Source: a virus
Lineage: Duplodnaviria > Heunggongvirae > Uroviricota > Caudoviricetes
IMG/VR virus record: IMGVR_UViG_2531839252_000006
Direction: 5' to 3' (one strand)
Length of the DNA: 39,466 nt
Shown here: positions 30,810 to 35,283 of the stretch, in pieces
Position numbering within the stretch: the first letter of the stretch is position 1
How the letters are laid out: each line of letters begins with the position of its first letter
Notes under the pieces: model-generated
Told to the model about the DNA's origin: nothing
Seen by the model: only the letters and a program-made list of their open reading frames with translations
Database searches by the model: none
Translations under genes and position numbers: made by a program

Positions 30810-31460
30810 ATGAATACACAACTGATGGGTGAGCGTATTCGCGCTCGCAGAAAAGAACTCAAGATTAGGCAGGCTGCCCTTGGCAAGATGGTTGGCGTGT
30901 CTAATGTTGCTATTTCCCAATGGGAGCGTTCTGAAACTGAGCCCAATGGCGAAAACCTATTGGCCTTAGCCAAGGCTTTGCAGTGCTCCCCTGATTACTT
31001 GTTGAAAGGAGAAGATAGTCTTTCAAACATTGCCTATCACAGCAGGCATGATCCAAGAGGTTCGTATCCTCTAATTAGTTGGGTAAGCGCAGGATGTTGG
31101 ATGGAAGCTGTAGAGCCATATCATAAGCGTGCAATAGATAACTGGTACGATACAACCGTAGATTGTTCAGAAGATTCGTTTTGGCTGGACGTAAAGGGTG
31201 ATTCGATGACGGCTCCAGCCGGTCTTAGCATCCCGGAAGGGATGATAATACTAGTCGATCCTGAAGTAGAACCTCGTAATGGGAAGCTGGTAGTGGCAAA
31301 GCTCGAAGGAGAAAACGAGGCAACTTTCAAGAAGTTAGTTATTGATGCTGGCAGAAGGTTTCTAAAACCACTTAACCCACAATATCCGATGATTGAGATC
31401 AACGGGAACTGCAAAATCATCGGTGTAGTTGTCGATGCAAAAATAGCAAACCTTCCATAA
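30810..31460 (+). CDS. c2: Prophage repressor C2 (CI-type, LexA-like S24 autopeptidase fold), 216 aa.
   Basis: Translation MNTQLMGERIRARRKELKIRQAALGKMVGVSNVAISQWERSE ... GDSM ... matches remembered P22 C2; same length. Confidence 0.9.
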   Translation: MNTQLMGERIRARRKELKIRQAALGKMVGVSNVAISQWERSETEPNGENLLALAKALQCSPDYLLKGEDSLSNIAYHSRHDPRGSYPLISWVSAGCWMEAVEPYHKRAIDNWYDTTVDCSEDSFWLDVKGDSMTAPAGLSIPEGMIILVDPEVEPRNGKLVVAKLEGENEATFKKLVIDAGRRFLKPLNPQYPMIEINGNCKIIGVVVDAKIANLP

Positions 31461-31771: not shown

Positions 31772-32044
31772 ATGACAGTAGTCATTACATATCTGGCTGA
31801 CGATAACGCCAGAAATAGCCGCAGAGCACGCAGACAGGCTCAACGTGAACAGGCAATGCAAGAGCAGCGACTGGCGCGAAAGATTGCGCTAAAGCTCTCT
31901 GGTTGCGTCAGAGCAGATAAAGCAGCATCACTCGGAAGCCTTCGCTGTAAGGAAGAAGATGAACGCAGTGGAAGTATTTGCCTGCCAAACGTAGCTCTTT
32001 ACGCGGCAGGCTACAGGAAATCAAAACAACTGACGGCGAGGTAA
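31772..32044 (+). CDS. N: N-type transcription antiterminator, 90 aa.
   Basis: Arg-rich N-terminal motif (NARNSRRARRQAQREQ) and first gene downstream of PL/nutL; GGAGG 5 nt upstream. Confidence 0.7.
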   Translation: MTVVITYLADDNARNSRRARRQAQREQAMQEQRLARKIALKLSGCVRADKAASLGSLRCKEEDERSGSICLPNVALYAAGYRKSKQLTAR

Positions 32045-32046
32045 TT

Positions 32047-32340
32047 ATGGATATTTCATGTATTGAACAATTACTAATTGAGAAAACGAAAGAAATGCTT
32101 GATGTATTGGACATAAAAATATCTGAGTTAAAAGATACACCCGCGACACAACTTATTCTCGAACGTAGTCGAAATAAATTCTTAGAGTTAAACCCTGACG
32201 TTCAAAATATAGCATCTAAACTGCTGGCTACATTGATTGAGAGAAATGCATTGTTATCGATGTCATCAGATGAACGAAAAAAACTGGCGAACGAAGATGC
32301 TGCAACCATCCGCCAGGCATTCGAAATTTTGTTTTCTTAA
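32047..32340 (+). CDS. Hypothetical protein, 97 aa, in an AT-rich segment after N.
   Basis: GAGG 6 nt upstream of the ATG at 32047; the longer ORF-track start would overlap N. Confidence 0.5.
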   Translation: MDISCIEQLLIEKTKEMLDVLDIKISELKDTPATQLILERSRNKFLELNPDVQNIASKLLATLIERNALLSMSSDERKKLANEDAATIRQAFEILFS

Positions 32341-32505
32341 TTACTTACTGTTTATTCTGATAATCTCATCAAGAATTTTTTCATAAACAACTGTGATTGG
32401 CTTTCCGTCAATGCCAGGGGCAAGATTACCGGCTCTGATAAGCTCAACAATAATCTGTTGAGCGGCTTCGTGTGGGTTGGTTTTAGGATTAACAATATCT
32501 GTCAT
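32341..32505 (-). CDS. Hypothetical small protein, 54 aa, convergent with the preceding gene.
   Basis: GAAGGG upstream of the ATG at 32505; stop abuts the stop of the plus-strand 97-aa gene. Confidence 0.4.
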   Translation of the reverse strand: MTDIVNPKTNPHEAAQQIIVELIRAGNLAPGIDGKPITVVYEKILDEIIRINSK

Positions 32506-32715
32506 AACAAAGCCCTTCTTTTGACTGTGGAAACAACAGTCTACCCATTTCCTTTGACTGTGGAAAGTGAAGGAACCACCGAGCCTGATGTGGTTAAAAG
32601 ACAGGCACAATCTTTACTACCGCAATCCACTATTTAAGGTGATATATGGAAGAAGAATTTGAAGAGTTCGAAGAGCATCCTCAGGATGTGATGGAACAAT
32701 ACCAGGACTATCCGT

Positions 32716-32916
32716 ATGACTACGACTATTGATAAAAATCAATGGTGTGGACAATTCAAGCGATGCAATGGATGCAAGCTGCAATCGGAATGCATGGTTA
32801 AGCCTGAAGAAATGTTTCCTGTAATGGAAGATGGGAAATATGTCGATAAATGGGCAATACGAACGACGGCAATGATTGCCAGAGAACTTGGTAAACAGAA
32901 TAACAAGGCTGCCTGA
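32716..32916 (+). CDS. ral: Ral-like restriction-alleviation protein, 66 aa.
   Basis: Length and sequence (MTTTIDKNQWCGQFKRCNGCKLQSECMVKPEEMF ...) resemble lambda Ral as remembered; position after N. Confidence 0.6.
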   Translation: MTTTIDKNQWCGQFKRCNGCKLQSECMVKPEEMFPVMEDGKYVDKWAIRTTAMIARELGKQNNKAA

Positions 32917-33052
32917 TGGTGGCCTTTATTTTTGGCATAAACAACAGAATAAACACTGCACTGTGTATTCATTCCAACGAGTGAATACACGGAGCAATGT
33001 CGCTCGTAACTAAACAGGAGCCGACTTGTTCTGATTGTTGGAAATCTTCTTT

Positions 33053-33080
33053 GCCCTCCAATGTGAGGGCGATTTTTTAT
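33053..33080 (+). terminator. Rho-independent terminator in the PL operon (tL-like).
   Basis: gccctc-caatgt-gagggc followed by gattttttat. Confidence 0.55.
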
Positions 33081-34068: not shown

Positions 34069-34776
34069 ATGGATTTGAACAAATTCGATGAGCCATTCAG
34101 CCCTGAAGATATCGAATGGCGAATACAGCAAAGCGGTAAAACACGCGATGGCAAGGTGTGGGCTATGGTGCTGGCTTATGTCACGAACCGGGCAATCATG
34201 AAACGCCTGGACGATGTTTGCGGCAAAGCAGGATGGCGCAATGAATACCGCGATATTCCCAACAACGGCGGAGTTGAATGCGGCATATCAATCAAGATTG
34301 ATTCCGAATGGGTAACCAAATGGGATGCTGCTGAAAACACGCAGGTAGAAGCCGTCAAAGGTGGTCGTTCAGGTGCAATGAAGCGTGCTGCCGTTCAGTG
34401 GGGAATCGGTCGGTATCTGTATAACCTTGAGGAAGGTTTCGCACAAACATCTCTCGATAAAAAGCAGGGGTGGCACAGGGCAAAACTGAAGGATGGAACA
34501 GGATTTTACTGGCTCCCTCCATCGCTGCCGGGATGGGCAATCCCAGCATCAGATAACAAACCATCACCAGAAAATACCAACCAGAAATCTCCATCGGTTG
34601 ACTGCGAACAAATCCTGAAAGACTTCAGCGATTATGCGTCAACAGAAACTGATAAGAAAAAACTCATCGAGCGTTATCAGCGTGACTGGCAATTAATGGC
34701 TGGCAACGAGGAGGCGCAGGCTAAATGCGTTCAGGTAATGAACATCAGAGTTAACGAACTAAAACAGGCGGCATAA
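34069..34776 (+). CDS. Single-strand annealing recombinase, Rad52/Rad22-like, 235 aa.
   Basis: Motif GAMKRAAVQWGIGRYLY resembles the Rad52-family signature; followed by ssb and an exonuclease. Confidence 0.6.
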   Translation: MDLNKFDEPFSPEDIEWRIQQSGKTRDGKVWAMVLAYVTNRAIMKRLDDVCGKAGWRNEYRDIPNNGGVECGISIKIDSEWVTKWDAAENTQVEAVKGGRSGAMKRAAVQWGIGRYLYNLEEGFAQTSLDKKQGWHRAKLKDGTGFYWLPPSLPGWAIPASDNKPSPENTNQKSPSVDCEQILKDFSDYASTETDKKKLIERYQRDWQLMAGNEEAQAKCVQVMNIRVNELKQAA

Positions 34777-35283
34777 ATGGCAAGCAGAGGCGTAAATAAG
34801 GTGATTATCCTTGGTCGGGTAGGACAAGCCCCGGAAGTTCGATACTCACCATCAGGAACAGCGTTAGCTAACCTGACAATAGCCACATCAGAACAATGGC
34901 GAGATAAAAATACTGGCGAGCAAAAGGAATTGACTGAATGGCATCGTGTTGCTGTATCCGGGAAACTGGCTGAGGTCGTGGGGCAGTATGTGAAAAAAGG
35001 TGATCAGATTTATTTCGAGGGAATGCTGAGAACCAGAAAGTGGAAAGACCAGTCAGGGCAAGACCGTTACACAACCGAGGTTCATGTCGGAATTAATGGC
35101 GTGATGCAAATGCTTGGCGGCATTGGCGACAGCAAACAACAAGCAGCCAGCAGGCAATCACAGAAGCCACAGCAGCAATCATCACCAGCACAACACAACG
35201 AACCTCCGATGGATTTTGACGACGATATACCCTTTGCACCAGTAACTCTCCCCTTCCCTCGTCACGCTATTCACGCAATTTAA
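34777..35283 (+). CDS. ssb: Single-stranded DNA-binding protein (OB fold), with a 15-aa extension after the DDDIPF motif.
   Basis: N-terminus [41 protein letters not shown] is a typical SSB; Gln-rich linker; DDDIPF is followed by [15 protein letters not shown] before the stop. Confidence 0.85.

Follow-up and report, generated by a model that had tools for sequence, protein, structure and literature searches.

A convergent gene pair behind a sieB-type control region as a candidate exclusion cassette in a lambdoid prophage

Between the antiterminator gene N and orf28, phage lambda carries the exclusion gene sieB. In the corresponding slot of the prophage record IMGVR_UViG_2531839252_000006 (39,466 nucleotides, the whole of which is referred to here as the window) lies a cassette of two small convergent open reading frames (ORFs), ORF97 and ORF54, with a pair of direct repeats upstream of the latter. 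Here, using about 130 loci collected through a conserved core sequence and the junction of one repeat type (type II), plus phage records, we find by sequence comparison that these repeats are a conserved part of a sieB-type control region and not a DnaA box. The surrounding stretch, approximately 32501-32623, is very probably the counterpart of the sieB promoter, leader and sas antisense RNA of phages P22 and lambda, and homology strongly supports placing the window repeats as type II members of a motif pair that flanks the -10 element wherever such regions occur. Homology also lends strong support to regarding the relatives of ORF54 and of ORF97 as genuine protein genes under purifying selection, inherited as a convergent pair. 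We favour, with some reserve, an exclusion module on sieB/esc/sas logic, in which a cargo gene expressed in the lysogen would be silenced by lytic antisense read-through and accompanied by a partner encoded in the early operon. The specific exclusion and self-immunity roles of ORF54 and ORF97 are more tentative.

The cassette in the sieB slot

The prophage that the window represents is lambdoid, of the lambda/P22 type, and has its PL operon on the plus strand. ORF97 (97 aa; 32047-32340, plus strand) belongs to this operon, its ATG standing 2 nt after the N stop codon and preceded by a GAGG Shine–Dalgarno sequence. ORF54 (54 aa; 32341-32505, minus strand; PGAP WP_000129979.1) faces it, the two stop codons abutting. 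An earlier reading made from the sequence alone (the sequence-only reading) had called a 97-aa gene followed by a convergent 54-aa gene, and needed only small coordinate corrections; its label of the segment after N as AT-rich holds as well, because G+C content is 34.5-36% over 32000-32400 as against 52-55% within N. In the lambda annotation, sieB (34482-35036) fills the interval from N to orf28 and is read against N, the stop codons of the two genes abutting; ORF54 has exactly its position and orientation. The sequence-only reading had put both sieB and rex in the equivalent lambda slot; sieB is indeed there, whereas rex maps to the opposite flank of N, in the interval that separates cI from it.

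The left mosaic junction of the cassette is the conserved C-terminal end of N and its right bound is the conserved core, with identity to lambda (100%) resuming at window position 32573, equivalent to lambda 34430. The cassette occurs downstream of at least two different N alleles (that of the window, L001 and L131 versus that of L112) and is therefore a mosaic block. It is rare: megablast against phages placed it in no phage record, and among 5,426 complete E. coli genomes just 6 have it, including a copy with 100% identity in strain MS 16-3 (NZ_CP146667), where both ORFs are annotated as hypothetical proteins. We judge it probable that the cassette is a modular replacement of sieB/esc in the slot between N and orf28/ral, with a variant sieB-type control region retained.

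Paired repeats and the DnaA-box question

The paired direct repeats noticed earlier upstream of ORF54 are real, but their start-to-start distance is 33 bp, not 34. They are 18-mers (written TTCYTTTGACTGTGGAAA; 17/18 identical), with a proximal copy, TTCTTTTGACTGTGGAAA, at 32516-32533 and a distal copy, TTCCTTTGACTGTGGAAA, at 32549-32566, and they share the exact 13-mer TTGACTGTGGAAA (32521-32533 and 32554-32566), which has no further match with up to two mismatches elsewhere in the window. A two-copy 13-mer in a single window is statistically unremarkable; it is conservation at other loci, rather than window statistics, that makes the repeats more than chance. When five type II leaders are compared (sources: E. 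coli, Citrobacter, Edwardsiella and a metagenomic phage), 12 of 13 and 13 of 13 columns are invariant in the two copies as against only 2/15, 9/20 and 3/16 in the flanking stretches, and the genes adjoining these leaders show a synonymous divergence (dS) of ~0.7-1.0.

Across the locus set the motif takes three forms: CTGTAGGGG twice at a spacing of 34-35 (type I), CTGTGGAA twice at 33 (type II, to which the window belongs) and TGTTGGGG twice at 33-35 (type III). Both copies match within each locus, with no mixed pair in the approximately 130 loci. The same repeats stand upstream of unrelated cargo genes. Scanning the genomes of species representatives for the type II junction returned no match.

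Resemblance of the motif to a DnaA box or an operator had been suggested. For the DnaA box we required the 9-mer TTWTNCACA to exceed chance frequency and to be conserved in homologous sites. Both copies match the relaxed consensus at 8 of 9 positions on the minus strand (nTTTCCACA), yet such 8/9 matches number 73 in the window where 85 are expected, and the type I and type III motifs are not DnaA-like, so the suggestion is not supported. An operator specific to the cassette fares no better, as the repeats recur ahead of unrelated cargo genes and the two proteins of the cassette are both acidic. A broader version of this idea would make the repeats operators for a DNA-binding protein, of host origin (DnaA, for example) or encoded by the phage as a regulator, that binds about three turns apart on a single helix face, with events at the RNA level secondary. 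It would account for the 33-35 bp spacing kept across three motif types, for copies that bracket the -10 and are strongly conserved while the spacer drifts, and for the DnaA-like 8/9 match. We nevertheless regard it as improbable: that match is at chance frequency and confined to type II, no cargo protein co-varies with motif type, the acidic ORF97 and ORF54 match no DNA-binding domain, and the compensatory changes with G-U pairs in the stem around the distal copy, described below, fit PL-strand RNA only.

Promoter and sas-like antisense region

P22 sas is a 127-nt RNA running in the PL direction, with its sequence given by a 2026 RNA sequencing study (PMC13397905, Table 2), and spans the cargo start codon to ...CUUUACUACCGC. 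Alignment to P22 sas and to diverse leaders delimits the homologous region of the window at 32501-32623 on the plus strand. Across its 3' half, sas matches window 32573-32623 almost perfectly; the 5' half differs in sequence and keeps the same layout, P22 and lambda carrying CTGTAGGGGT twice where the window carries TTGACTGTGGAAA twice. Rfam 15 has no family over this region, either in the window or in P22, and sas is thus absent from it.

The sieB promoter and sieB RNA start are annotated in the P22 RefSeq record. A generic sigma-70 scan called no promoter in the leader, and the promoter was therefore placed by homology with P22. The predicted -10, TAGACT (32538-32543, minus strand), lies between the repeat copies and aligns with TAAACT, the 3' end of the annotated P22 promoter. 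TAAACT is the -10 in P22 and lambda alike, and none of 14 diverse leaders departs from TAnnnT at its T, A or final T. The distal copy would supply the -35, TTTCCA (32561-32566, minus strand), at a 17-bp spacer from the -10. Transferred by alignment, the P22 start predicts an ORF54 transcript beginning at about 32531, inside the proximal copy, with a leader of ~26 nt. Read on the minus strand, the proximal copy would accordingly contain the transcription start and with it the first nucleotides of the ORF54 mRNA; read on the plus strand, it would belong to the sas-like RNA. The ORF54 Shine–Dalgarno sequence, AAGAAGGG (32513-32520, minus strand; read from sequence), lies 7 nt upstream of the ATG, and other cargo variants have AAGGAG or AAGGA at the equivalent place.

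The window and the P22/lambda sieB-esc-sas system therefore share the slot (between N, or gene 24, and ral), a cargo gene opposed to PL whose stop codon abuts that of N or, in the window, of the gene that follows it, a homologous promoter, leader and antisense (the 3' half nearly identical) with a conserved -10, a motif pair 33-34 bp apart that brackets it, and PL-strand hairpins 2 and 3. They differ in the motif itself, in the cargo (a soluble acidic protein of 54 aa in the window, a membrane protein of ~190 aa in the case of SieB) and in the presence of ORF97 on the PL strand where P22 and lambda have sieB antisense only. The switch from SieB to an internal in-frame Esc product also has no equivalent: because ORF54 contains no internal Met or in-frame start, no Esc-type product is expected from it, and the control region is a variant and not a full member of the P_sieB/sas type.

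A plus-strand promoter using TTGACT as its -35 was considered and rejected, as no type II leader has a usable -10 at 16-19 bp downstream and type I leaders lack TTGAC. Separately, the minus strand contains a 19-codon upstream ORF, MGRLLFPQSKEGLCYDRYC (32489-32548), whose ATG falls within the spacer that separates the two predicted promoter hexamers (-35 and -10) and so precedes the predicted start of the transcript; in L002, L004 and L013 the cargo ORF is in the frame of this ATG and would gain 14 residues from it. The upstream ATG could hint at a second, longer transcript.

PL-strand RNA hairpins

On the PL strand, a two-hairpin fold, with one hairpin around the distal copy followed by one in the core, is found in 13 of 14 diverse leaders (RNAalifold and independent minimum-free-energy folds). 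In the window these are the predicted hairpin 2 (32549-32575), with the loop GUGGAA at 32560-32565 contributed by the distal copy, and hairpin 3 (GCCUG...CAGGC; 32583-32606) within the highly conserved core, which takes the form GCCGGG...CCCGGC in Citrobacter and Edwardsiella. Of the hairpin 2 alignment cells, 96% are paired, compared with 37-56% in slid-partner controls; three pairs show compensatory changes, and 15 cells are G-U pairs, which the opposite strand would turn into A-C mismatches. A role for the distal copy at the RNA level, on the PL strand, is supported by this pattern of pairing and would be additional to its predicted use as a -35.

The hairpin 2 loop is GGGG in types I and III and GUGGAA in type II, in each case complementary to the first nucleotides of the cargo mRNA (ACCCCUACAG at the mapped start in P22; UUCCAC predicted in the window). 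Such complementarity between loop and mRNA 5' end would give the two copies a reason to evolve together.

A third candidate, hairpin 1 (GACUGU...ACAGUC), was set aside: it is not conserved in the second L144 region (L144b), and its alignment columns differ from those of type I. Within the conserved core (32575-32606), two mutually exclusive hairpins can form, CCAC...GUGG or GCCUG...CAGGC. Both options are retained with different sequences in Edwardsiella and Citrobacter (L141 and L143; CACGC...GCGUG or GCCGGG...CCCGGC), which suggests a possible RNA switch or processing site.

The two proteins

ORF97 is acidic (isoelectric point 4.8) with no transmembrane segment, and its AlphaFold2 model has four helices, with a predicted local distance difference test score (pLDDT) of 75 and a predicted template modelling score (pTM) of 0.34. 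By sequence similarity it is a member of a small orphan family, family X, with forms of 97, 99, 138-150 and 58 aa. Its homologues, at 26-31% identity, occur in E. coli, Salmonella, Citrobacter and Edwardsiella, and a profile search of 1.84 billion proteins yielded only 13 representatives, all unannotated. ORF54, also acidic, is modelled as a two-helix hairpin (pLDDT 80, pTM 0.62) and is assigned to a second orphan family, family 1, with 54- and 60-aa forms. It is 26% identical to the 60-aa family, sharing P11, A14, A15, Q17, A25, D33 and G34, and both it and a 60-aa relative match PHROGs 27767 (E = 1e-9 for ORF54) and 17494, of unknown function.

Profile and structure searches, which could have tied either protein to known PL-operon proteins, matched neither to anything known. 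Pfam, NCBIfam and PADLOC gave no match for ORF97 or ORF54, including no profile among the catalogued anti-phage defences of PADLOC-DB v2, and no SieB match was found in Pfam, PHROG or NCBIfam. Unlike SieB, neither protein has a hydrophobic segment. For both proteins, a sequence-profile search of the PDB returned nothing, as did Foldseek with both models against the PDB at E <= 0.001. Word-indexed searches with the single sequences retrieved near-identical proteins only, and tblastn of ORF54 against phages gave noise. The searchable literature held no paper mentioning the RefSeq identifiers of the cassette proteins. Alternative cargo proteins from other loci matched only PHROGs of unknown function when compared with Pfam, NCBIfam, PHROGs and PADLOC.

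Inside ORF54 lies a 26-nt direct repeat (32356-32381 and 32434-32459; 81% identical) that encodes KILDEIIR and QIIVELIR in the two predicted helices, so that the protein looks like an internal duplication of one helix.

Inheritance of the convergent pair

Relatives of the two genes recur together. A 99-aa plus-strand and 60-aa minus-strand pair follows N in E. coli (L002) and Citrobacter (L143); with type II repeats, the same pair lies between a cI-like repressor and an N-like gene in Edwardsiella piscicida (L141, CP084428; 2501-3481); and a 58-aa/60-aa pair sits beside lysis genes in a metagenomic phage (L144). All of these 99/60 and 58/60 pairs are convergent and slightly overlapping, with type II repeats upstream of the minus-strand gene. 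The ratio of nonsynonymous to synonymous divergence (dN/dS) is 0.05-0.17 for the 60-aa gene and 0.13-0.30 for the 99-aa relatives of ORF97. Of the five control frames used for the 60-aa gene, all exceed 1.1 except rc1, which gives 0.21-0.29.

The layout itself, in which a PL-strand gene faces a gene placed behind a sieB-type leader, is also seen with proteins unrelated to these: pairs of 150 aa (plus) and 84 aa (minus), of 133 aa (plus) and 83 aa (minus), and of HK620 gp17 (plus) and gp16 (minus), none of which belongs to a known family. In the 150/84 variant the convergent ORFs overlap antiparallel by ~100 nt (L004, 2237-2336; L006, 2237-2334), and the 84-aa ORF is unannotated in RefSeq.

These patterns bear on a reading in which the two genes are unrelated passengers: ORF97 an early PL accessory, for example an acidic anti-defence or host-takeover factor like Ral, and ORF54 a lysogenic conversion gene acting on host physiology, brought together in one mosaic block. 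Both proteins are small, acidic and helical, a common form for protein-binding inhibitors; ORF97 lies in the early operon next to ral; and family X also occurs with a different, 84-aa minus-strand partner or with none (L117). Hitch-hiking alone, however, hardly explains a family X and family 1 pair found in three genomic positions and four host groups at dS ~1, nor a convergent plus/minus layout that recurs with unrelated protein pairs, and we hold this reading to be unlikely, if less so than that of DNA operators.

Proposed mechanism and alternatives

Under the exclusion-module reading, PL would be repressed in the lysogen and ORF54, like sieB, would be expressed from the P_sieB-type promoter. 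Once PL becomes active, whether the prophage is induced or a phage of the same type enters, N-modified read-through would produce ORF97 and then the antisense of ORF54 and its leader, and a stable sas-like RNA would pair with the ORF54 mRNA over its 5' end and ribosome-binding site, shutting it off. ORF54 would most likely be a prophage-expressed effector against superinfecting phages, and ORF97 a lytic-phase partner that spares the phage's own development, the role Esc has toward SieB. An exclusion-type role, with expression specific to the lysogen, is reasonable to infer because the cassette is a discrete unit in the sieB slot, its genes travel together and its minus-strand gene has a sieB-type promoter. 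These same features, the promoter by homology, bear out the earlier idea of a small independently regulated cassette, apart from an operator of its own.

Several observations weigh against this reading. ORF54 is small, soluble and acidic where SieB is membrane-bound, and it has no internal Met or in-frame start. Its only diverged copy (L135) lies on a hypermutated contig and gives an uninformative omega of 1.27 from 11 changes. The antidote role of ORF97 we infer from linkage and expression logic only. The predicted start base of the ORF54 transcript is a pyrimidine, and the -35 matches at only 4 of 6 positions. Some type II leaders accompany different plus-strand genes or lack a minus-strand gene (L013, L132 and L117), so that control region and proteins are separable. 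Finally, the three motif types represent few independent lineages, which leaves the covariation statistics modest, and the absence of mixed pairs may in part reflect tight linkage between copies only 33 bp apart. As to L135 itself (a Logan SRR9067158 contig), it differs from the window almost only by transitions, scattered over ORF54 and the leader, while its ORF97 differs at 2 of 294 nt, both synonymous; it looks like a case of hypermutation or an assembly artefact.

The sequence-only reading had also raised a toxin-antitoxin-like system, which could be of type II or a type I-like arrangement with ORF54 as toxin and the sas-like RNA as antitoxin. Two small, tightly linked genes would suit such an addiction module, and by homology a cis-antisense RNA would cover the ORF54 ribosome-binding site, formally as in hok/sok. 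For type II, neither a recognisable domain nor a co-transcribed two-gene operon was found: the genes are convergent, and no toxin or antitoxin family matched, the best NCBIfam hit being VapB at E = 0.077, for the L002 relative only. For type I, the antisense is predicted by homology, but ORF54 is hydrophilic and acidic and has no hydrophobic segment, with a maximum 19-residue Kyte–Doolittle hydropathy (KD19) of 0.85 (0.85-0.88 in the comparison with SieB) as against 1.73 for lambda SieB. Moreover, the antisense would be expected only when PL is derepressed, the opposite of what an antitoxin needs in a resting lysogen. We consider an addiction module very unlikely, and the proposal is not supported.

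More speculatively, the exclusion-module reading extends to a portable platform, in which the sieB promoter and sas, on in the lysogen and off in the lytic phase, would exist in at least three specificity types and carry unrelated, so far undescribed effector and self-immunity modules, including ORF54/ORF97; in every module the effector would be transcribed in opposition to the lytic operon and its partner along with it. Each specificity type would, on this conjecture, be marked by its own motif, one copy forming the start of the cargo mRNA and the other lying in the loop of the antisense hairpin. Different motif types would then let two modules coexist in one phage, as in L144, which carries two control regions of different motif type in tandem.

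The locus shows that a conserved control region has split into several motif types and serves a number of small-protein pairs, unrelated to one another, that databases do not recognise. If these are exclusion effectors with cognate self-immunity, the slot would be a practical place to seek new prophage defence genes and a compact model of antisense-gated discrimination between self and non-self, with a reason for the repeat copies to evolve in step. If they are not, the locus is still a clean case of lambdoid mosaicism around a conserved regulatory socket.

Relation to known systems

To our knowledge, the mechanism of SieB has been unclear since the 1970s, and antisense control by sas is known essentially from one phage. 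Ranade and Poteete reportedly described sieB-esc-sas of P22 in 1993, inactivated the P22 promoter with a two-base mutation and predicted sas control for lambda as well. The sieB/sas control principle is already known, sas-mediated control of sieB having been published for P22 (as summarised in PMC12197685). In the searchable literature we did not find descriptions of the type II motif variant, of the ORF54 and ORF97 families, of recurring convergent modules in this socket or of the complementarity between loop and mRNA 5' end.

The closest arrangement with other proteins is gp16/gp17 of HK620 (HK620p16/p17; also in HK629), a convergent pair in the same slot with a 120-aa PL-strand gene after N and an opposed 164-aa gene that a sieB-type leader drives. 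Its proteins, a coiled-coil plus zinc-ribbon protein and a partner, are unrelated to those of the window and annotated as hypothetical only, and its leader is of type I. RNA-OUT/RNA-IN of IS10 and hok/sok are cases of cis-antisense control that offer a mechanistic analogy, not homology. As in these, the proposed model has a stable antisense hairpin with a loop that complements the outermost 5' nucleotides of its target mRNA, and pairing would cover the ribosome-binding site. Unlike them, the antisense in the window would come from read-through of a large operon, its loop would be a second, displaced copy of the target sequence, and the target is neither a transposase nor a hydrophobic toxin.

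Variant leaders and flanking features

Some leaders depart from the two-copy form. In the single-copy variants L006 (2460-2530) and L117, the 33-bp unit that includes the -10 is gone, the outcome that recombination of one repeat with the other would give; L006 probably does not express its cargo gene, and L117 no longer has one. A further group, the class D leaders (L010, L020 and relatives), keeps the distal copy only, the proximal copy being replaced by a CCCCCTGACAAAATAAGGGGG hairpin; these have no minus-strand gene, and a plus-strand gene like that of HK620 gp17 ends just upstream. In the metagenomic phage contig L144 (1-1450), the two tandem sieB-type control regions lie upstream of holin and lysozyme genes, the first with a type I leader driving a 173-aa coiled-coil/zinc-ribbon gene and the second with the 58/60 pair and a type II leader.

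In the window, the order of genes around the cassette is cII and cro (minus strand), a P22 c2-like repressor gene (30810-31460), N (31772-32044, plus strand; Pfam N_peptide, E = 7e-15) and the cassette, with orf28, ral and a DUF2528 gene later. To the right of the cassette, orf28 (32646-32732, plus strand) is 100% identical to lambda, as is ral (32716-32916, plus strand; lambda annotation; Pfam Ral, E = 2e-48). Two terminator-like hairpins with T-runs follow ral, with an inverted repeat of 22-nt arms between them (32905-32926, 32953-33000 and 33051-33072), and these are probably the tL2 cluster of lambda.

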